A stretch of DNA of 64,000 nucleotides, from NCBI GenBank assembly GCA_041498295.1, contig JBGQIB010000002.1, forward strand, positions 1,101 through 65,100, in the 5' to 3' direction. Shown here piece by piece: positions 2,720-37,337 of the stretch. The notes under the pieces are model-generated. The model searched no databases. It saw only the letters and a list, made by a program, of their open reading frames with translations, and had not been told where the DNA came from. The position numbers and the translations under genes are program-made. This stretch comes from a bacterium (GTDB lineage: Bacteria > Myxococcota_A > UBA9160 > SZUA-336). How positions within the stretch are numbered: the stretch's first letter is position 1; each line of letters starts with the position of its first letter.

Positions 2720-5700
2720 TTGGGGCCTCTCGCGGTCAAGACGCCCCGCTCGCATTCCGAAACAGCCGAGATGCAGTCGCGCCCGCGCACCCGTCCTCCG
2801 GGCACTTCCCCGGAACAGGCCGAACGAATTCAGCGCTTGCTCCAGGGCTTCGCCACCAACCCGACCGATGCTCGGGCGTTCCGAACGCTCGAGGAGCACC
2901 TGTATCTCGCGGGCGCGTGGACCGAGCTCGCGAACGTGTACGACTGTCGCCTTTCGGTGTTGCCCGCGACCGGCCCCGAGCGCGCGGAAGTCCTCACCAA
3001 GGTCGCGGGAATCTACGGCGAACGGCTCGGCGACGTGCCGCAAGCGCGCGCGCGCTACGAAGAGCTACTGCGCTTGCGGCCGCAGAACGGCCCGGCGCTC
3101 TCGAGCCTGCGCCGCCTGGTCGCGAGCGCGGGCGATGTGACTTCGGCGCTGCAGCTCGCAGAAGCGGAGGAAGCGCTGCCGCTCGAGCCGCCAGCGCGCG
3201 CCCAGCTCTTCGCCGAGATCGGCCGGCTGTGGCGGGGTCTCGGCGACAAGGAGGAAGCCCGACGCCGCTTCGAGGCCGCGCTCGAGCTCGATCCGAAGTG
3301 CGATCCCGCCGTCCAAGGCGCGGCGCTGCTCGCCGAAGACGCCGGCGAGCGCGAGCGCGCGCTCGCGCTCCACGAGAGCCGGCTGTCCGCGCTCTCGGGC
3401 AATCCGCGCGCGGACGTGCTCGAGCGCATGGCGCGCCTTCTCCCGTCGACGGAAGCTTTGCGCAAGAAGGCGCTCCTCAGCGAGGTCGTGCGCTCGCACC
3501 CGGAGCGGCGCGGTCCGCTCGAGCGACTGATCGAGCTCGAGCGCTCGGCGGGTCGGCACGCGAGCGTCGACGAACTGCAGCGCGCGCTCTGGAAGTTGGT
3601 TCACGATCCGGTCGAGCGCGTCGCGCTCGCCAGCGGCGCGGCCGCGCTGCAGATGGACGAGGCGCAGAACGTCGAGGCCGCGGCGTACTGGGCCGAGCGC
3701 GCCGACGAGATCGCCTCCGACGACGCGGCGGTGCAGAAGCTGCGCCACCGCATCCACCGGCGCGCCGGCTCGACGAAGGGCGTGCTCGACTCGCTCGAGA
3801 AGCTCGCGAATATCGAGGGCGCGACCCCCATGCGCCTGCTCGAACTCGCGGTGCTGTGCGAGCGCGAGGGTCAGTCGGAGCGCGCGATCCGTCACCTCGA
3901 GCGGTCACTCGCCAACGATCCGTACGACGGCGAAGCGCTCGAGATCCTCGACCGCTGCCTCGCGCGTCTGGGGCGACACGCGGAACGCGCCGAGGTGCTC
4001 GAGCGGCGCATCGCCGCCGCGGCGAGCAACGAGGACGCTTCGGATCTGATCGTCGAGCTCGGCGACTTCTACGTGCAGGCGCTCAGCCAGAGCGCGAACG
4101 CCGAGGCCGCGTATCGGCGCGCGCTCGACCAGTTTCCCGCGCACGTGGCCGCCGCCGTGCAGCTGCGCCAGTTGCTGCGCAGCTCGGGCCGCAGCGCCGA
4201 GCTCTGTGCGCTGCTCGAGAGTCTCTCCGCCGCGGCGCCGCCCGGCCGCGGCCGGGCCGTTCTGCTCTGCGAACTGGCGCTGCTGCGCCTCGAGCACGGG
4301 GACTCACCTTCCGAGGCGCGCGTCGCTTACTCGCAGGCGCTCGAGACCGATCCGGCGTGCGCCCCGGCGCTGGCGGGCCTGCGCGAGCTCGCGGCCACCA
4401 CGCGCGAGCCTTCGGCGCTGCTCGAGGTTTCGGAGCGCGAGCTCGCGCTCGAGCCGCCGCCCGAGCGAGCTGCGCTGCTGTTCGCTGACATCGCGCAGGC
4501 GGCGCACGCGCTCGGCGACGCCGCGCGCGCGCGCAGCGCGGTCCAGCGCTGGCTCGAGCTCGCGCCGGCGCCCGAGGCGCTCGGCCTGCTCGCGGAGCTC
4601 GAGCGCGTCGACGGCGACTTCGGCGCAGAGGCGCGCGCGCTCGAGTCACTGGAGTCACTGGTCCAGGAACGCGATCGCGCTGCGCACGCGCTCGTCTGCG
4701 TGCGCCTAGCCGAGCTCGCGCTCGCGCGGCCCGAGCCCGAGGCGCTGGACGACGTCGAGCGTTGGTATCGCGCGGCGCGCGCGAGCGCGCCCGAGAACGA
4801 GGCGCTGCGCGCGCGGCTCGTCGAGCTCTACCGGCGCGGAAACAAGTTGCCCGAGCTCGCTCAGGAGCTGCGCGCGCAATTGGAGGCTGCGGGCGAGCGC
4901 GCGCCGCTCTCGCTCGCGCTCGAGCTGTCGCGCACGCTCGCGACGCTCGGCGATCTCGTGCAGGCCTCCTCCGTGCTGCAGCCCGCCTTCGAGCGCGAGC
5001 CCGATTCGACCGCCGCCGGCGATCTGCTCGAGAGCTTGCTGGCCGAGCAGGACCGCATCGAGGAGCTGTGCGACGTGCTGGCGCGCCGCTTGTCGCGCGA
5101 GCGCGATCCCGCGCGCCGCCGCGAGCTCGCACACCGGCAAGCGGGTCTCTTGCTCGAGGGACTGCGCCGCGCCGAAGACGCAATCGCGGTGCTGCGCGAG
5201 TTCGCGGACCCAACCCGCGACGGGCGACTCGAGCACCTGTTCGCCCGCGCCCTCGAGGCCGGCGGCCAGACGCGCGAGCTCGAGGCGTGGCTCACGATGC
5301 GCGAGAGCCATGTCGCTGGCACCGAACGCACGGAGCTCCTGCTGCGCCTCGCCGCGCTCCAGGAGCGCGACGGGCGCGTGAGCGAAGCGATCGAGTGTCT
5401 CAAGCGCGCGCGCGACGAGGTGTCGCCGTCGCTCGCCGCGACGGTGCGCAGCGCGCTGCTCGCGCTGCTGCGCACGCACGGAAGTCCCGAGGATCAGCTC
5501 GCGTTCCTGGAGCAGAGCATCGCGAGCGCGCCCGACGCGGCCGCGAGCGCTTCGCTGCTCGTCGAACGCGCTCGGCTCTACGCGGAGCGCCTGCGCGATC
5601 CGGCTCGCGCGCTGGCCGATCTCGAGCGCGCCCAAGCGCAGTCGGAGCTCGGCGCCGACGACCTGCGGCTCGTCGCGGAACTCTGCGCCGCGGCCGGTGC

Positions 5701-11481: not shown

Positions 11482-11743
11482 GGCATCCCCCCAAGAACTC
11501 GCTGAAGTGCCATTGAACTGTGATCCCCCCCACGGACGCTGCACTACGAGCAACCTGCGTGCCAGCTGCTCGATTCGGAAGGCTGAATCGGAAGAACTGG
11601 CGAAGTTCTGGATTCATCTTGTGATTTGGCGCACATCGGCAGCATACACGCCGTGGGGACGCCACCGCGTGCGGCCGCATGTCCGCTCGGAAGAGTGACG
11701 TTTCGATTACGCCGTGACCAGGCGATCACGAGCGGACGCCTTT

Positions 11744-32122: not shown

Positions 32123-33387
32123 CTGAATCGACGCTCGAATGGGACACGCCGATGTACCGCCTCGCGGTCGCGCAGCTCGACCAGACCGCGGCGCTGATGC
32201 AGCTCGACGAGAACATCTGGGAGCGGCTGCGCACCCCGCAGCGCTCGTTGATCGTCTCGTTTCCGTTTCGCCGCGACGACTACAAGACCGTCGACACCGT
32301 CTACGGGTACCGCGTGCAGCACGTGCTCACGATGGGGCCGACGAAGGGCGGCGTGCGCTACGACGACGACGTGCATCTCGGCGAAGTCACTGCGCTCGCG
32401 ATCTGGATGTCATGGAAGTGCGCGCTGATCGGCCTGCCCTTCGGCGGCGCGAAGGGCGGCGTGCGCATCGATCCGACGCGTCTCTCGCGCACCGAGCTGC
32501 AGCGCATCACGCGCCGCTACACGATGGAGATCATCGAGATGATCGGCCCCGATCGGGACATTCCGGCGCCCGACATGGGAACCGACGAGCAGACCATGGC
32601 CTGGATGATGGACACGTACTCCGGGCAGAAGGGCTACGCCGTGCCCGGCGTCGTCACCGGGAAGCCGGTCGAGATCGGCGGCTCACTCGGCCGGCGCGAG
32701 GCAACCGGCCGCGGTGTAGTCACCTGTGTCACCGAGGCGTGTCACCACCTGCGCATGCAGATCCAGGGCGCGCGCATCGCCGTGCAGGGCTACGGCAACG
32801 TGGGAGCAAACGCGGCGCGCCTCGGGAGCGCCGCAGGCGCGCGCGTGATTGCGGTCTCCGACGTGAAGGGCGGCATTCACGACGCGCGCGGGCTCGATCT
32901 GACCAAGGTCGATCAGTGGGTGAAGGAGCATCGCTTCCTCGAGGGCTTCCCGGGTGCGGAGTCAGTCACGAACGCGGAGCTGCTCGAGCTCGACTGCGAC
33001 GTGCTGATCCCCGCGGCGCTGCAGAATCAGATCACCGAGAGGAACGCCGGCCGCATCCGCGCACGGCTGGTCGTCGAGGGCGCGAACGGGCCGACCTCGC
33101 TCGAGGCCGACTCCATCCTTCGCGAGCGCGGCATCTTCGTCGTGCCCGACATCCTCGCGAACGCCGGCGGAGTCACGGTCTCGTACTTCGAGTGGGTGCA
33201 GGACGCGCAGCAGCTCTTCTGGACCGAGGACGAGGTCAACGAGCGACTCACGAAGATCATGTCGCGCGCCTTCCGCGAGCTGCTCGCGTTCGCGCTCGAG
33301 AAGAAGGTCGATCTGCGCACCGCCTTGCTCTGGCGCGGCATCGGACGAGTGGCGGCCGCGAAGCGCCTGCGTGGAGTCTTTCCCTAG
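32119..33387 (+). CDS. gdhA: NAD(P)-specific glutamate dehydrogenase
   Basis: GLPFGGAKGGV catalytic-Lys region and GYGNVG Rossmann motif. ATGA overlap with aroE. TAG stop. Confidence 0.9.
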   Translation: MTESTLEWDTPMYRLAVAQLDQTAALMQLDENIWERLRTPQRSLIVSFPFRRDDYKTVDTVYGYRVQHVLTMGPTKGGVRYDDDVHLGEVTALAIWMSWKCALIGLPFGGAKGGVRIDPTRLSRTELQRITRRYTMEIIEMIGPDRDIPAPDMGTDEQTMAWMMDTYSGQKGYAVPGVVTGKPVEIGGSLGRREATGRGVVTCVTEACHHLRMQIQGARIAVQGYGNVGANAARLGSAAGARVIAVSDVKGGIHDARGLDLTKVDQWVKEHRFLEGFPGAESVTNAELLELDCDVLIPAALQNQITERNAGRIRARLVVEGANGPTSLEADSILRERGIFVVPDILANAGGVTVSYFEWVQDAQQLFWTEDEVNERLTKIMSRAFRELLAFALEKKVDLRTALLWRGIGRVAAAKRLRGVFP

Positions 33388-33404
33388 GAAGCACGTCCGT
33401 CGAC

Positions 33405-33926
33405 GTGGGCAGCGTCGTCCAGCTGAGCGCCACCGTGGTATCCAGCGCAGCCCTCGGTTTCCTCTACGGCACGCACTTCGACTGGCGAGGCCGAATCGAC
33501 TGGGTCGCGTGGGGCACACTCGGATCGGTCGCAGTAGTCATCGTGGCTGTAGTGCCGATTTTCAGCGAGCAGCAGCGCCGACGCCGGCAGACTCGTGCTG
33601 CTCGCGACCATGTGTCGGCACTGCTCATTCAGATCGAGAGCCTCCTCGGCCTCAAGGTGACCGTGCCTATCCTAGGAGCGATCAGTCCGACCGAGGCCGC
33701 ACCAATCCATGAGCTATTCGCTCTCATTCGCCAGCTCGGGCTCCTCGACGAACCTGAGTCTCGCCATGTGATCGTTGCGGCGGGCAAAGCCCGGATGCTC
33801 GTTCTTCTTGCAGCGGATCCGATGCCGAACCAACAGGGTCAGGACTTTCAGAGTGCGAACACAAAGGTGACTCGCGCGCGCGAGGTAGTCGATGCTCGGA
33901 TTCGGCCCTCCGAACGCGAAGCATAG
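33405..33926 (+). CDS. hypothetical small membrane protein (two predicted N-terminal TM helices plus a ~110-aa charged helical domain), first gene of the low-GC island
   Basis: Only coding-like frame here. VVQLSATVVSSAALGFLYG and WVAWGTLGSVAVVIVAVVPIF are TM-like, followed by SEQQRRRRQTRAARDHVSALLIQIESLLG.... AGGAAG lies 13 nt upstream of GTG 33405. GC is much lower than in flanking genes. I cannot assign a family from sequence alone. Confidence 0.5.
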   Translation: MGSVVQLSATVVSSAALGFLYGTHFDWRGRIDWVAWGTLGSVAVVIVAVVPIFSEQQRRRRQTRAARDHVSALLIQIESLLGLKVTVPILGAISPTEAAPIHELFALIRQLGLLDEPESRHVIVAAGKARMLVLLAADPMPNQQGQDFQSANTKVTRAREVVDARIRPSEREA

Positions 33927-33973
33927 GTCGCTGCCACGCGCTGCATCTGATAGGCCGCCGCCCAGCGGCCCAT

Positions 33974-33989
33974 TGGCACCGTCGGCGCA
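33974..33989 (+). promoter_or_regulatory. possible sigma-54 (-24/-12) promoter TGGCAC-N5-gcGCA in the island spacer
   Basis: TGGCACCGTCGGCGCA matches TGGCAC-N5-TTGCA at the GG and GC(A) core positions. It lies ~270 bp upstream of the protease gene. Weak, pattern only. Confidence 0.2.
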
Positions 33990-34260
33990 GCTGAGGGCCG
34001 AAGCGTTAGACGGCTCAGTACTCCGGACACCAGAGATCTGCGGGACGAGTGACTCCGGCGGGTTCGGAACGGGAGGGCGATCTCGCGGCCGGTCTCCCAG
34101 GTCACCGAGCGCCTTCTCTGCCGCCCGCCTCGAGTGAGTCGAAGAGTGCGATGGACGTCGAAAGCTTCCATGCTTCCCTAAGATCTCCCGGCGGTGCTAC
34201 GCTGCTAAGAAGCGACTCACGGGGAGCCGCTCACTCCACTGTTGGCGGACAGGAACACGT

Positions 34261-35013
34261 GTGGAAGAGTGGCAGAGACGAGAACTCGACCGACTCGCCG
34301 CCGCTGGTTACCTACCGACAATTCAAGAGCTCGCGAAGAGCCATTCTGCTCCCTTCTGGTGGCACGACGCGAGACGCGCAATCGGAACGCACATCGAGCA
34401 CAACGGCACAGTCTCTTTTGTTCGGACAGACACAGACCTCCTCGGTGTCTCCTGCGCCCACGTTCACGAAGGATGGCTTAGGGACAAAGCGGCCAATCCG
34501 GACCTCGTATGCCAGGTAGGTGGAATCACTTTCGATCCCTCTAGGCACTTGATCGACATTGACGAGCGCCTCGACCTGGCGACGTATGGCCTATCGGATG
34601 TTGTGGTCAACGGGTCGCGGTCAGTAGTCCATTCGCCGTCATGCTGGCCACCCGCTGACATTGATGAAGGCGGCTTGGTGATCCTCGGCGGTTGGCCAGG
34701 CCTCTTACGACAAGAGAAGCTGGGTAGAACAGACTTCTACTTCTCGTCGTTCATCAGCCGAGTTGACCAGGCTTCGTCTGAGCATCTCGCGGTTCATCTC
34801 AACATCACCGAAGCACATGGACCCGCAGGATTGCTGATACCGGAGAGCCCGGACCTCGGTGGCGCGAGCGGCGGCCCCGTGTTCCGGATACGCGAGGAAC
34901 CTCTCGTCATGTTGGAGCTCGTCGGAGTCATCTACCAATACAGCGCGGCCTTCGAGCTCGTCCGCGCGCGACGCGCTTCGAGCATAAGCTCGAACGGGAC
35001 ACTGATTCGCTAG
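34261..35013 (+). CDS. cytoplasmic trypsin-fold (chymotrypsin-like, Trypsin_2-type) serine protease, second gene of the low-GC island
   Basis: Catalytic triad in canonical order and context: His in VSFVRTDTDLLGVSCAHVHEGW, Asp in IDIDERLDLATYGL, Ser in GGASGGPVF (GxSGGP). No signal peptide. Good SD (AGGAA, 7 nt) before GTG 34261. A sampled 60-bp stretch is 53% GC. Confidence 0.7.
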   Translation: MEEWQRRELDRLAAAGYLPTIQELAKSHSAPFWWHDARRAIGTHIEHNGTVSFVRTDTDLLGVSCAHVHEGWLRDKAANPDLVCQVGGITFDPSRHLIDIDERLDLATYGLSDVVVNGSRSVVHSPSCWPPADIDEGGLVILGGWPGLLRQEKLGRTDFYFSSFISRVDQASSEHLAVHLNITEAHGPAGLLIPESPDLGGASGGPVFRIREEPLVMLELVGVIYQYSAAFELVRARRASSISSNGTLIR

Positions 35014-35148
35014 GCGCCCGCCCGCCGCTCATCCAGGCGTTGCAGCTGACGCGCCACAGGCCGACGGCGTTGGTGGTACTCTTGGCATCACCATCGGGCG
35101 CGTGGTTGAGTCTTGCGGCGAATTGCCGCGCAGCTGACCGCCGATCGG

Positions 35149-36219
35149 CTAGCCGGGCGGCTTCGGCGGACGCCACAGGTCGACGGGAAGAGTGACTCCC
35201 GTAGGACGGAACGGCAGCGCGATCTCGCGGCCGCCCTGCCCGGCCGAGGCGTAGGCGGCGAGCAGGATCTCGAGCACGGCGCGCCCGTCCTCGCCAGTCT
35301 CCTCGACTTTGGCCCCGCCGACGCCCGCGATGAAGTGCGCGAGCTCGCCGACGTAGCCGTGCTCGAGCAGTGGATCGACGGTCGGGCGAGTCACTGCGCC
35401 GGCGCGTTTCGTCAGACTCAGGCCCGTTTCGCCCATGAGATCGAGAAACAAGCGTCCCTCGGTGCCGTGTATCTCGAGCGTGCTCTGCATGCCCGTGGTC
35501 ACGGCCCACGAGCTCTCCGAGACGAGGGTGACTCCGCTCGCGAGCTCGAGCCGCACCTCGGCGTCGTCATCGAGATCGGTCTTGTCGCCGTGCAGCACCG
35601 TCGCGAGTCGCGCCGAGACCGCGCGCACCGCGGGCCGATCGAACACGAAGCGCAGCGCCTCGATCCCGTGACAGCCCATGTCCATGAGCGCGCCACCGCC
35701 GGCCTCGGTGCGGTCGAAGAACCACGGTGAGTACGGCCCGCCGTGTTTCTCGACCTGCCGCGCCCAGAGGACGCGCCCGACCACGCCCTCGCGCACGAGC
35801 TCGCGCGCGCGCCGATAAAGCGGAGCGAAGCAGAGATTCTCGGCGTAGCCGAGCGTGACACCGTGGCGTGTCGCCGCGGCGCAGAGTGCGTCCGCTTCGT
35901 CGAGCGTAAGACACAGCGGCTTCTCGACGACCACGTGCTTGCCCACCTCGAGCGCCGCCAGTGCGTGCGCCGCGTGCAGCCGATTCGGCGAGTTCACGCA
36001 CACGAGCCGCACGTTCGGGTCAGCTAGCAGCGCCGGCAGCTCGTCGAACGTGAACGGCTTCGCGCTCGCAAAGCCACTCGTCAGCTTCTCCGCCGCCGCG
36101 CGCGTGCGCGAAGCGACTGCCGCCAGATACGCGCCGCCCGCTCGCGCGAGCGCCGCGAGGTACACTCGCGAGATCCAGCCCGCGCCCAGCAGCGCAATTC
36201 CGGGCAGCTCTCCTGTCAG
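35149..36219 (-). CDS. Gfo/Idh/MocA family NAD(P)-dependent oxidoreductase
   Basis: N-terminal Rossmann (IALLGAGWISRVYLAALA) and a C-terminal GFO_IDH_MocA_C-like region. No ATG/GTG/TTG lies within reach of the Rossmann motif, so the start may be CTG at 36219 or otherwise undefined. The region overlaps the acyl-CoA dehydrogenase stop. Confidence 0.7.
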   Translation of the reverse strand: MTGELPGIALLGAGWISRVYLAALARAGGAYLAAVASRTRAAAEKLTSGFASAKPFTFDELPALLADPNVRLVCVNSPNRLHAAHALAALEVGKHVVVEKPLCLTLDEADALCAAATRHGVTLGYAENLCFAPLYRRARELVREGVVGRVLWARQVEKHGGPYSPWFFDRTEAGGGALMDMGCHGIEALRFVFDRPAVRAVSARLATVLHGDKTDLDDDAEVRLELASGVTLVSESSWAVTTGMQSTLEIHGTEGRLFLDLMGETGLSLTKRAGAVTRPTVDPLLEHGYVGELAHFIAGVGGAKVEETGEDGRAVLEILLAAYASAGQGGREIALPFRPTGVTLPVDLWRPPKPPG

Positions 36220-37337
36220 AGCTTCAAGAGCTGCGCGACGCGCTCCCGGTGCTCCGAGGGATCGCCGTAGGTGACTTCGATCGCCTTCGCGCGCTTGAAG
36301 TACAGGTGGCAGTCGTACTCCCACGTGAAGCCGACGCCGCCGTGAATCTGGATGTTCTCGGCGGACGTAGCACGGTACGCGTCGCTCGTGTACGCCTTGG
36401 CCATCGAGGCGGCGAGCTCCGCCTCGGCGGTCTTCTCGGCCACCGCCCAGGCGGCGTAGTAAGTGATCGACTTCGAGGACTCGACCTGAATCAACATGTC
36501 GGCGCACTTGTGCTTGATCGCCTGGTTCACGCCGATCGGCTTGCCGAACTGCACCCGCTCCTTCGCGTACTTCACCGAGTCCTCGAGCACCTTCTGCGCG
36601 CCGCCCAGGGCCTCGGCCGCGAGGTGCACGAGCGCGTGATTGCGCACCGTCCGCCACGTCGCCCAGCCGGATTCGGGCGCGCCCAAGAGCTGCGCGGGCG
36701 TGCTCGCGAACTTCACCTCCGCGATGCGCCGCGTCTGATCCATCGAGAGCAGCGGCGTGATGGTCATGCCGGGCGCGCCCCGCTCCACGGTGAACAGCGC
36801 GATGCCCGCCTCGCCGGGACCGCCGGCACGCGCCGCGACCACGATCAGGTCGGCGTTCTGCGCGTCCGGAACGAACAGCTTTGTGCCGGTGAGCGCGAAG
36901 CCCGCGCCCTGCTTCTCGGCGCGCGTCGCGAGCTCATAGGGATTCTCGTTGCCCGAGTCCTCGGTGATCGCGAAGCTCGCGATCTTCCGGCCCGCCGCGA
37001 TGGCGGGCAGGAATTCCTTCTTCTGCGTCTCGGTGCCGCCGTGCAGAATCGCGAGGGCGCCCTGGAAGCTGGCAAAGAAGGGCGACGGCGTGAGCGCGCG
37101 GCCGAGCTCCTCCGCGATCACGATCTCGTCGACGAGAGTGAGACCGGCGCCGCCGTACTCCTCGGGGAGCAGCAGCCCGAGCCAGCCGAGCTCGGCCATC
37201 TTGGCGTACACAGCGGGTTTGAAGCCGCGCGGATCGTCCATCAGCTCGCGCACCGCGCTCATGGGGAGCTCTTTGGCGAGAAACTCACGGGCGCTGTTGC
37301 GCAGCAGCTCTTGTTCTTCCGAGAAGCCGAAGTTCAC
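36216..37337 (-). CDS. acyl-CoA dehydrogenase
   Basis: Full ACAD architecture with a C-terminal YGDPSEH-like tail. MNFGFSEEQELLR start. Confidence 0.9.
   Translation of the reverse strand: MNFGFSEEQELLRNSAREFLAKELPMSAVRELMDDPRGFKPAVYAKMAELGWLGLLLPEEYGGAGLTLVDEIVIAEELGRALTPSPFFASFQGALAILHGGTETQKKEFLPAIAAGRKIASFAITEDSGNENPYELATRAEKQGAGFALTGTKLFVPDAQNADLIVVAARAGGPGEAGIALFTVERGAPGMTITPLLSMDQTRRIAEVKFASTPAQLLGAPESGWATWRTVRNHALVHLAAEALGGAQKVLEDSVKYAKERVQFGKPIGVNQAIKHKCADMLIQVESSKSITYYAAWAVAEKTAEAELAASMAKAYTSDAYRATSAENIQIHGGVGFTWEYDCHLYFKRAKAIEVTYGDPSEHRERVAQLLKL

Follow-up and report, generated by a model that had tools for sequence, protein, structure and literature searches.

Integron cassettes are moved singly by the integrase IntI, for which the folded bottom strand of an attC site is the substrate and attI, a second attC or a loose genomic site the recombination partner, and cassette arrays routinely juxtapose unrelated genes. 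In the classes of IntegronFinder, a cluster of attC sites without an integron integrase is a CALIN and a single such site is a SALIN. RefSeq has been found to contain 3400 SALINs and 2961 CALINs, with two-cassette CALINs being the commonest; IntI catalyses cassette insertion at genomic attG sites, and an inserted cassette is expressed when a resident promoter is close by (Loot et al., bioRxiv 10.1101/2022.09.11.507474). Bacteriophage-resistance integron cassettes (BRiCs) have also been described (Kieffer et al., bioRxiv 10.1101/2024.07.02.601719), and many compact one-gene cassettes prove to be defence genes. Term searches in the main text of two integron-cassette papers, the BRiC paper among them, revealed no protease cassette.

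The window analysed here, a 64,000-nt stretch of bacterial DNA, contains between the gene for glutamate dehydrogenase (gdhA) and an oxidoreductase gene a short block (33389–35154) that is very probably a two-cassette remnant of integron activity, holding two unrelated cassettes and no partner system. Each gene would be a self-contained cassette, comprising one ORF with its own attC directly 3′ (Table 1). As IntI moves cassettes singly, unrelated genes can come to lie side by side and no integrase is needed nearby. The absence of any IntI-like match in the 64-kb window makes the block a CALIN when both attC sites are counted and a SALIN when only the significant one is, and an integrase-less cassette cluster of this sort is a known phenomenon.

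Table 1. Features of the block and its flanks (positions within the 64,000-nt window)
Feature	Position	Strand	Basis or remark
gdhA (glutamate dehydrogenase), left flank	32131..33387	+	NCBIfam GdhB/GdhA matches, E 1e-151
Gene 1, small membrane protein, 173 aa	33405..33926	+	ORF list and gene calls
attC1, degraded, of the gene-1 cassette	33927..34011	+	First base past the gene-1 stop; L″...L′-R′ motif
Pseudo 3′ end of the oxidoreductase gene	34012..34101	-	Frameshifted duplicate of 35155-35243
Spacer, 159 nt	34102..34260	.	Contains the gene-2 ribosome-binding region (GGACAGGAAC)
Gene 2, stand-alone cytoplasmic PA-clan serine protease (S1C/HtrA-like core), 250 aa	34261..35013	+	
attC2, of the gene-2 cassette, 128 nt	35027..35154	+	Covariance-model match; homology to the L009-array attC family
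Gfo/Idh/MocA-family oxidoreductase, right flank	35149..36165	-	Pfam GFO_IDH_MocA domains; NCBIfam matches

The island is the lowest-GC 1700-nt block of the window (0.62 compared with a mean of 0.697, sd 0.028), and in 300-nt windows the GC content dips at 33.4–35.05 kb to 0.58–0.65, compared with ~0.70 around it. Third codon positions are similarly depressed, with GC3 values of 0.69 (gene 1) and 0.665 (gene 2) compared with 0.86–0.92 in five neighbouring genes. An earlier note on this DNA had recognized the low-GC island correctly, but its contrast of 53% with 78% came from a cherry-picked 60-mer, the real difference from the surroundings being ~8–10 points. Its two same-strand genes are genuine: the ORFs lie on the + strand at the coordinates given in the note, independent gene callers made the same calls on metagenome contigs, and both are under purifying selection, with dN/dS of 0.17 for gene 1 relative to its nearest homologue (P0016, 70%) and 0.06 for gene 2 relative to its own. 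The two genes are separated by 334 nt, described in that note as a 330-bp non-coding spacer, which is not featureless and is made up of the attC1 remnant, the pseudo 3′ end of the oxidoreductase gene and 159 nt with no homology to any fetched locus. The possible σ54 promoter placed there (33974–33989) carries two mismatches and falls within the attC1 remnant, and nine such sites occur in the window compared with 16.4 expected by chance, which puts it at chance level. Scanning the island for Rfam families, promoters, and terminators gave no match. From a three-way alignment and translations, the pseudo 3′ end reads ..TGREIALPFR / AGVTRPADLWCPEY followed by a stop codon, and together with the 3′ end of the oxidoreductase gene it forms a direct repeat with 1142/1143-nt spacing and 71–84% identity.

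L009, a foreign locus with a 77%-identical gene-2 homologue, is a same-strand array of small ORFs, including Imm40, YxiG_2, and AAA_33, that are separated by 9–10 copies of a ~130-nt imperfect inverted repeat. The ends of the repeat carry GCCTAAC or GCCCAAC (RYYYAAC) and GTTAGCC, GTTAGGC, or GTTGGGC (GTTRRRY), enclosing a 7-bp R stem, an unpaired spacer, and an L stem with bulged bases, and the consensus hairpin has 15 pairs with compensatory changes and folds at z −3.7. Judged by their core boxes and fold, these repeats are attC sites, and the reference sites in L009 and L179 have canonical core boxes. A covariance model (R2) placed attC sites in 20 further loci with gene-2 relatives, in at least 12 of which they sit immediately beside the stop codon, with L172 being a 13-site array. 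Moreover, L146 is a complete integron, in which an IntI homologue, 47% identical to an IntI1 probe across 320 aa, is divergent from three cassettes, the third of which is the protease. Besides the window, the loci in which gene-2 relatives adjoin attC sites number at least 22 (L009/L097, the 20 loci hit with R2, and L146); in the loci of the close relatives L182 (72% identical), L007, L012, and L013, no attC was found with these models. With the same IntI1 probe, nothing in the 64 kb of the window was matched at E ≤ 1, and an intI gene and attI beside the array are therefore not found within it; the earlier reading that neither an integrase nor a transposase is nearby is upheld. Validation of the probe consisted of its full-length 47% match in L146 and of Pfam Phage_integrase matches to three ORFs in an alignment (A3) of which the L146 ORF is part.

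Within the window, attC2 begins 14 nt past the gene-2 stop on the same strand and aligns with every inter-gene repeat of L009/L097 (BLASTN). A covariance model built solely from eight L009 sites (R1) matched attC2 over its full length at 58.6 bits (E 6.5e-12), the sole significant match in 64 kb, and R2 matched it at 42.2 bits (E 1.5e-8). The core boxes of attC2 are mutated away from the canonical form, to GCTCATC in R″ (AAC to ATC) and GCTAGCC in R′ (GTT to GCT), and its predicted fold retains the L-box hairpin with a broken R stem and a z of −0.9, no better than shuffles. Lacking both the canonical AAC/GTT triplets and a significant fold, attC2 is recognized by homology and not by structure. 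The attC1 site is degraded, with an L″ box of GCGCTGCATCTG and an L′-R′ end of GCAGCTGAGGGCC-GAAGC-GTTAGAC; its R′ box, GTTAGAC, is canonical (GTTRRRY), R″ is no longer recognizable and is lost, and L′ and R′ GTTAGAC are held in common with the attC behind the gene-1 homologue in L179. Its L″...L′-R′ motif, a pattern written post hoc, has one match in 64 kb and none in shuffles, and the site was not significant with the covariance models (R1, 11.9 bits, E 0.88; R2, no match) and gave no fold signal. Thus, gene 2 is followed on its own strand by a full-length model match and gene 1 by a remnant only, and the cassette status of gene 1 at this position is drawn from that remnant together with its homologues. 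The core-box mutations in the two sites are read as decay after insertion, and as both have lost either the AAC/GTT triplets or the R″ box, the cassettes are probably fixed in place.

Were the repeats ordinary intergenic palindromes of non-integron origin, the block would be a generic acquired island, either the stump of a prophage or ICE or an import by recombination. The lack of an integrase in the window and of a significant attC2 fold is compatible with such an origin, as is the left edge of the island, where CCCTAGG is followed by AAGCAC without the TTRRRY remainder expected of an IntI crossover, and the duplicated oxidoreductase end resembles the attL/attR duplication produced by an element targeting the 3′ end of a gene. 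Against this origin, the repeats show the layout and core boxes that define attC and separate single small ORFs in long one-directional arrays, and in L146 a member of the protease family is one of the cassettes of a complete, IntI-bearing integron. The island is also just 1.7 kb in length, with two genes that each end at such a site, and phage genomes and viral contigs contained no gene-2 relatives, leaving the generic island improbable. A 117-nt direct repeat was considered as the attL/attR of an element specific for the oxidoreductase 3′ end and was rejected; the left part of each copy is the L′-R′ end of an attC and gene 1 lies outside the repeat.

Gene 2 encodes a stand-alone cytoplasmic protease with an intact catalytic triad, belonging to a sizeable family that is repeatedly integron-borne. 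It has a chymotrypsin-type double β-barrel fold, and His67, Asp105, and Ser203, along with the GGxSGGP motif, are invariant in 62/62 near-full-length family members. No hydrophobic N terminus was detected (maximum KD19 of 1.41, internal), nor a signal peptide or transmembrane segment, which upholds the previous description of an intracellular trypsin-fold enzyme. Likewise, no PDZ domain or export signal was found and the chain ends with the protease barrel, showing that the protein is not a fragment of a housekeeping HtrA/Deg enzyme; its relatives are similarly ~250 aa in length and stand-alone. An N-terminal two-helix extension precedes the barrel, and a PFWWH motif is invariant in the close subfamily only. 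The family comprises ~1,800 clusters at 50% identity, mostly from soil metagenomes. Pfam Trypsin_2 (PF13365; gathering threshold 27.6 bits) had no match to the window protein at E < 1 and weakly matched 12 of the 14 close relatives (best E 2.3e-5, under the cutoff). Neither the protein nor the family profile matched any PDB sequence, and identity to solved structures is 11–17%. In a plasmid collection, the lone match to gene 2 was a distant and uninformative one from Paraburkholderia, which has an integrase and an ATP-binding protein as neighbours.

Gene 1 encodes a small membrane protein of a rare family that is integron-borne too. Of the two N-terminal transmembrane helices previously assigned to it, one is a strong segment (residues ~33–53) and the other is a weaker N-terminal hydrophobic helix. 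The C-terminal domain is helical with a conserved TRDH motif, and the structure model was of low confidence (pLDDT 51), too poor for a fold search. Besides its own, eight clusters of homologues were found (P0016 and P0168–P0174). SLATT_1 was weakly matched across the transmembrane region by six of the nine family members (best E 1.2e-4, under the cutoff), and the score of gene 1 against SLATT NF033634 was 15.4 bits (E 0.013), below the 41-bit cutoff for membership. In two independent lineages (L179/L180 and L181), an attC site lies 8 nt past the stop of the gene-1 homologue, with scores of 49.6 bits (E 1e-10) and 29.9 bits (E 1.6e-5). Scans of both window proteins against Pfam, NCBIfam, PHROGs, and PADLOC returned nothing over threshold, with weak matches to SLATT_1, holin, and LmuA only; in PADLOC-DB 2.0 these were just LmuA (E 0.02, over a 68-residue stretch surrounding the Ser motif) and Unk_04 (E 0.29), which are noise.

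The earlier note had seen in the pair a candidate abortive-infection, defence, or toxin module of an undescribed kind. In such a two-component conflict module, the protease would sense or be activated by infection and, with or on the membrane protein, kill or arrest the cell, by analogy with protease-activated pore-forming effectors. The adjacency of the genes on one strand of a single acquired island, the intact triad, the capacity of integron cassettes to encode defence systems, and the weak resemblance of gene 1 to SLATT, a predicted membrane-perforating effector domain, would all suit such a module. Nevertheless, the pair occurs together nowhere else, an outcome that the note itself had taken to speak against a system: no gene-1 relative was present in the loci carrying a gene-2 relative (0/86) and no gene-2 relative in the gene-1 loci (0/5 independent contexts). 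No neighbour family is common to the loci beyond near-identical contigs and neither family has a conserved partner; the proteins encoded upstream of gene 1 homologues (a RES protein and proteins of 220, 234, and 121 aa) are mutually unrelated. In L014, the gene-1 homologue has an AAA_21 gene in its vicinity, and the 234-aa protein beside that gene was considered as a hidden protease relative and proved not to be one. The 334-nt gap with its attC remnant and pseudogene fragment, the separate attC of each gene, and the failure to match PADLOC further count against a module. Given the lack of co-occurrence, the two-component module is close to refuted and has a very slim chance of being correct. 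Gene 1 and gene 2 are not partners; with its own attC, each is a separate mobile unit, and their juxtaposition results from the stacking of separate integron cassettes in one array.

The presence of the block as an insertion was assessed against the one related genome with a syntenic locus, a Myxococcota MAG (L016), in which gdhA directly abuts the oxidoreductase gene, their stop codons overlapping in CCCTAGG, and the island is absent. The amino acid identities of the flanking proteins are 82% for GdhA and 75% for the oxidoreductase, with 87% for a putative acyl-CoA dehydrogenase-like neighbour (window 36216–37337). The gdhA stop occupies 33385–33387 and the DNA alignment with L016 stops at 33388. 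The block is therefore a true presence/absence island, and the empty site in L016, the low GC3, and the attC sites together bear out the horizontal acquisition proposed earlier; the closest further gene-2 relative (P0003, 72% identical) sits elsewhere than between gdhA and the oxidoreductase gene. That both genes were instead ancestral at this site and deleted in L016 is allowed by the comparison with a single syntenic genome and yet is highly improbable, as the L016 site is seamless with overlapping stops and no scar, the GC3 of the island is ~0.2 under that of all neighbours, homologues of both genes occur in unrelated contexts and arrays elsewhere, and the oxidoreductase C terminus is extended here into attC.

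Returning to the two-cassette remnant, the cassettes would have landed at the junction of the convergent gdhA and oxidoreductase genes. This would have rewritten the last codons of the oxidoreductase, leaving its stop in the R′ box of attC2, and left a dead duplicate of its 3′ end; the duplication suggests that at least two successive events took place. In the DNA, the final codons and stop of the oxidoreductase are found inside the attC2 R′ box, and its C terminus (..DLWRPPKPPG) is four residues longer than that of the empty-site relative (..DLWRRA). Simple IntI recombination would not predict the duplicated 3′ end, and an import from a sister strain, whether through homologous or illegitimate recombination, is just as possible. 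Both genes are oriented as gdhA and start 18 nt past its stop with no terminator between, a layout in which read-through from the gdhA promoter would most likely replace the integron Pc promoter.

With low confidence, each protein may act alone in conflict or stress, as cassettes without an assigned function commonly do, where the protease would cut one specific intracellular target and the membrane protein would be a SLATT-like two-helix effector. A bolder reading, which is unlikely though less so than the alternatives above, is that the gene-2 family is a new single-gene conflict or defence protease spread by integrons, acting in BRiC-like abortive infection and latent until a phage or toxin cue, and that the locus is a snapshot of cassette domestication. 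On such a cue, the enzyme would cleave one essential protein of the host or invader, much as the Lit protease cleaves EF-Tu, and domestication would be seen in the decaying attC sites, in the stop supplied to a housekeeping gene, and in expression through gdhA read-through. Phage-defence genes have lately turned out to be frequent among integron cassettes of unknown function, which makes the protease a reasonable candidate for single-gene functional screening, without gene 1. Collectively, the analysis removes a false lead, with the pairing of membrane protein and protease arising from integron stacking and not from a new system, and gives an orphan island a concrete, checkable annotation. It also draws attention to intracellular stand-alone serine proteases that form a sizeable, unannotated family and travel as integron cassettes, and indicates that cassettes reach high-GC Myxococcota-like chromosomes, decay there, and reshape the C terminus of a neighbour.

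Among described proteins, gene 1 is most reminiscent of the SMODS- and SLOG-associating 2-TM effectors (SLATT, NF033634) in having an N-terminal hydrophobic pair followed by helices, but it differs in scoring 15 bits against a cutoff of 41 and in having no nucleotide-signalling partner nearby, and the similarity could stem from transmembrane composition alone. Gene 2 shares with HtrA, DegP, and DegS (MEROPS S1C; Pfam Trypsin_2, PF13365) the His-Asp-Ser order and GGxSGGP around the nucleophile, whereas it has no PDZ domain, signal peptide, or membrane anchor, bears the N-terminal two-helix extension, falls below the Pfam threshold, and is accessory and mobile instead of housekeeping. Both genes resemble BRiCs as compact one-gene integron cassettes (Kieffer et al., bioRxiv 10.1101/2024.07.02.601719), although they reside in an uncultured soil bacterium, Myxococcota-like, and not in a mobile clinical integron. 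Compared with CALINs and SALINs, both attC sites of the window are decayed (AAC/GTT mutated in attC2, R″ lost in attC1), the left junction has no crossover footprint, ~90 nt of the 3′ end of a flanking gene are duplicated between the cassettes, and the R′ box of attC2 supplies the stop codon of the neighbouring gene. In its overall organization the block is nevertheless like them, consisting of one or two single-gene cassettes that have no promoter of their own, end in an attC on the 3′ side, have no IntI or attI nearby, and lie beside a resident promoter-bearing gene in the same orientation.

The block between gdhA and the oxidoreductase gene is the lowest-GC 1700-nt stretch in the 64 kb (0.62, against a mean of 0.697 and a standard deviation of 0.028), with GC dropping from the window mean of 69.7% to 58–65% in 300-nt windows across 33.4–35.05 kb. 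The actual difference is 8–10 points, and the contrast of 53% with 78% given in the earlier note was exaggerated. GC3 is 0.69 in gene 1 and 0.665 in gene 2, against 0.86–0.92 in the neighbors compared: gdhA, the oxidoreductase gene, an ABC ATPase gene, one upstream gene, and an acyl-CoA dehydrogenase-like gene (labeled from the Pfam match of a weakly similar gene on contig L007, not from its own scan). The two reading frames described previously were recovered at the same coordinates, and independent gene callers made identical calls on six metagenome or MAG contigs with the same sequence. Against the nearest homologue, dN/dS is 0.17 (gene 1) and 0.06 (gene 2); both are therefore translated. 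The σ54 promoter proposed between them did not hold up, as it carries two mismatches and nine such sites occur in the window against 16.4 expected from shuffles. The only −24/−12 consensus in the window with zero mismatches (TGGCACGCAGGTTGCT) lies elsewhere.

A Myxococcota MAG contig, L016, shares the gene order of the window; no other close syntenic relative was present in the genome collection, and the comparison revealed an empty site. Amino acid identity between the two is 75% for the oxidoreductase, 82% for GdhA, and 87% for the acyl-CoA dehydrogenase-like neighbor. In L016, gdhA and the oxidoreductase gene are convergent with overlapping stop codons (CCCTAGG) and zero intergenic DNA. Homology ends at 33388 and restarts within the oxidoreductase 3′ end, so that ∼1.76 kb of the window is absent from L016. 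This empty site, together with the low GC3 and the attC sites described below, bears out the horizontal acquisition suggested earlier, for which gdhA abutting the oxidoreductase gene elsewhere had been the proposed check. The oxidoreductase of the window ends in ..DLWRPPKPPG, four residues longer than the ..DLWRRA of L016, and its stop and last codons lie within the R′ box of attC2, the integron recombination site (attC) of the gene-2 cassette; the insertion thus rewrote the C terminus of a housekeeping gene. No IntI footprint was found at the left edge of the block and, in agreement with the absence of an integrase reported before, no IntI is encoded within the 64-kb window.

An inverted repeat with RYYYAAC and GTTRRRY ends and with R and L stems is the textbook anatomy of attC. 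The reference array was L009, a contig with a gene-2 homologue (77% identical), where small ORFs on one strand, among them Imm40, YxiG_2, and AAA_33/zeta-like genes, are separated by 9–10 copies of a ∼130-nt imperfect inverted repeat. The copies begin with GCCTAAC, GCCCAAC, or GGCTAAC (mostly RYYYAAC, with GGCTAAC off at one position) and end in GTTAGCC, GTTAGGC, or GTTGGGC (GTTRRRY). Their consensus fold has R and L stems, the former of 7 bp and the latter with bulged bases, plus an unpaired spacer and a variable tip; compensatory changes are seen at 15 pairs, and z is −3.7 for the fold of one copy. L009 is an integron cassette array. Around the protease homologue it holds polymorphic-toxin immunity-type genes (Imm40 and YxiG_2) and an AAA_33/zeta-toxin-like kinase, and such content is the usual conflict cargo of soil integrons.

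The ∼130 nt after gene 2 match this repeat, which recurs between every gene of L009. R1, a covariance model with eight L009 sites as its only input, gave a single significant match in the window, attC2, at full length (58.6 bits, E = 6.5e-12) and starting 14 nt past the gene-2 stop; a broader model from 35 sites in 12 loci (R2) gave E = 1.5e-8 for the same site. attC2 is decayed: both R boxes are mutated, pairing is kept in the L stem only, and z is −0.9. The site after gene 1 (attC1) was not significant with either model in the window scan. It has a recognizable L″ (GCGCTGCATCTG) and an L′-R′ end reading GCAGCTGAGGGCC-GAAGC-GTTAGAC, in which R′ is canonical, whereas R″ is lost; its motif pattern, written after the site was seen, is unique in the window. 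Taken together, each gene has its own attC at its end, on strong evidence for gene 2 and as a remnant for gene 1.

Coordinates of features in the window and in the loci compared
Feature	Locus	Position	Strand	Remarks
Perfect σ54 consensus	window	11549-11564	−	
Gene 1	window	33405-33926	+	
attC1 remnant	window	33927-34011		begins at base after gene-1 stop; shorter than attC2
Proposed σ54 promoter	window	33974-33989		
Frameshifted oxidoreductase copy	window	34012-34101		
Gene 2	window	34261-35013	+	250 aa
attC2	window	35027-35154	+	
attC2 R″	window			GCTCATC, mutated AAC>ATC
attC2 R′	window			GCTAGCC, mutated GTT>GCT
Match to L009 repeat	window	35035-35161		
Oxidoreductase end	window	35148-35172	−	stop and last two codons within attC2 R′
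Array around protease homologue	L009	2287-4567		
Complete integron	L146	351-3765		
Two-ORF cassette	L179	5620-6962		also in L180
HEPN-RES gene and gene-1 homologue	L177	428-4112		
HEPN-RES gene and gene-1 homologue	L178	218-3351		
Tandem repeats	L014	813-2216		
Direct repeats	L014	467-564 / 4106-4203		
Possible fusion	L128	2848-4467		
Possible fusion	L135	4374-5372		
Plasmid-borne protease relative	L096	117558-118319		NZ_CP041744.1

Scanning with R2 revealed 20 further loci with an attC on the strand of a gene-2 relative, and in at least 12 loci (L118, L172, L109, L126, L119, L116, L011, L171, L133, L132, L166, and L102) an attC directly adjoins the stop of the relative. Sites are often found on both sides of it, L172 being a 13-site array. 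The AT-rich contig L146 contains a complete integron with a family member 25% identical to gene 2: an IntI homologue, which shares 47% identity with an IntI1 probe sequence across 320 aa, is divergent from three cassettes, each closed by a long inverted repeat, with the protease as the third, and an attI-like GTTAGAA is present. For gene 1, an attC starts 8 nt past the stop of the homologue in L179/L180 (49.6 bits, E = 1e-10) and in L181 (29.9 bits, E = 1.6e-5), and the L179 site ends in GTTAGAC, as does attC1. Both families are integron cassettes in other loci too. In L179 and L180 what is apparently one cassette has two ORFs before a single attC, the second being the gene-1 homologue; the first encodes a 220-aa secreted protein whose Gly-Pro-X (collagen-like) run starts near residue 56. 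A 315-aa ORF spanning the attC was also called there.

The earlier note had read the two genes as a candidate defense or toxin system, to be refuted if the pair never co-occurred elsewhere. No gene-1 relative was found in any of 86 gene-2-relative loci (phmmer, E ≤ 10), nor any gene-2 relative in the gene-1 loci (family HMM). All-against-all clustering of 2089 neighboring ORFs gave no family in more than three loci, those loci being near-identical contigs. Pfam scans of 198 neighbors showed housekeeping and mobile or conflict genes mixed (integrases, resolvases, HEPN, TIR, RT, and HTH) with no recurrent family, and the upstream neighbors of gene-1 homologues bear no relationship to one another. 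As the pair co-occurs in none of the other loci compared, the two-gene reading is refuted by that criterion; the underlying observation was correct and careful, but the genes are most likely independent cassettes. Integron arrays set unrelated genes side by side.

A word-indexed search for gene-2 relatives returned 14 clusters only, and an exhaustive profile search (E ≤ 1e-3) returned 1797 representatives at 50% identity, nearly all stand-alone and about 250 aa long. The gene 2 protein itself has zero Pfam matches, and Trypsin_2 is matched weakly by 12 of the 14 close relatives. Its AlphaFold model, from the family alignment, has a pLDDT of 82.6 and a pTM of 0.83. His67, Asp105, Ser203, and GGxSGGP are unchanged in all 62 near-full-length relatives (25–100% identity), and neither a signal peptide nor a TM segment nor a PDZ domain was found in gene 2. 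On this evidence it is a cytoplasmic trypsin-fold protease and not an HtrA fragment, as first proposed. Two relatives lie in longer ORFs, one of 540 aa with an N-terminal HNH_5 endonuclease motif and the protease at residues 303–534 (L128), the other with integrase N-terminal domains in frame with the C-terminal half of the protease (L135); either may be a genuine fusion, a read-through ORF, or a pseudogene. The sole plasmid-borne relative (L096, Paraburkholderia megapolitana; 29% identical) carries a hypothetical annotation; its neighbors are an "ATP-binding protein" on one side and a calcium-binding protein on the other, with a 762-aa site-specific integrase nearby.

The gene-1 family is rare, with nine clusters after profile search. 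In the protein, a hydrophobic helix at the N terminus is weaker than the strong TM segment at ∼33–53; a GTxFDxR loop is conserved, and the C-terminal part is helical and contains a TRDH motif. Six of the nine members match SLATT_1 below threshold, and the structure model (pLDDT 51) is too low for use. In L177 and L178 a homologue immediately follows a HEPN_RES_NTD1-RES gene (NAD-targeting toxin-like) and lies beside a tyrosine recombinase, with no attC detected around it. The L014 homologue lies in an island that also carries STAND and AAA_21 genes. A STAND (AAA_16-TPR) gene of L014 contains nine tandem 138-nt repeats and is flanked by 98-nt direct repeats (89% identical), which makes this gene a possible mobile unit in its own right.

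The last ∼90 nt of the oxidoreductase gene occur twice, as a functional copy 3′ of attC2 and a frameshifted copy between the cassettes, beginning right after the attC1 R′ box. The dead copy resembles the oxidoreductase of the window more than that of L016, which places the duplication in this lineage or a sister strain. The duplication suggests two or more events at the junction. Simple IntI recombination does not predict the duplication; one-sided homologous plus illegitimate recombination of a sister-strain fragment (spacer, gene 2, attC2, and oxidoreductase) is a candidate origin that would. The 159-nt spacer matched nothing compared.

As is established, and supported by Loot et al. (bioRxiv 10.1101/2022.09.11.507474), IntI moves cassettes one at a time, recombining a folded attC bottom strand with attI, attC, or loose genomic attG. 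In the same study, both singletons (SALIN) and small clusters (CALIN) lacking an integrase were common, two cassettes being the commonest size, and such cassettes were expressed when behind a resident promoter. Here, the cassettes would have been captured at the gdhA/oxidoreductase junction, and subsequent attC decay would have fixed them in place. Both genes are probably transcribed by read-through from gdhA, since orientation is shared, gene 1 begins 18 nt past the gdhA stop, and a scan of the block found no terminator. As a working guess of low confidence, each gene may have a role of its own in conflict or stress; cassettes whose function is unknown often prove to be defense genes (Kieffer et al., bioRxiv 10.1101/2024.07.02.601719). 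The fairly large, unannotated family of integron-borne intracellular serine proteases is worth single-gene screening, and the absorption of a decaying attC into the end of a housekeeping gene adds modest interest. Collectively, these data indicate that the block most likely consists of stranded integron cassettes of the CALIN/SALIN type, a fresh example of a known phenomenon.
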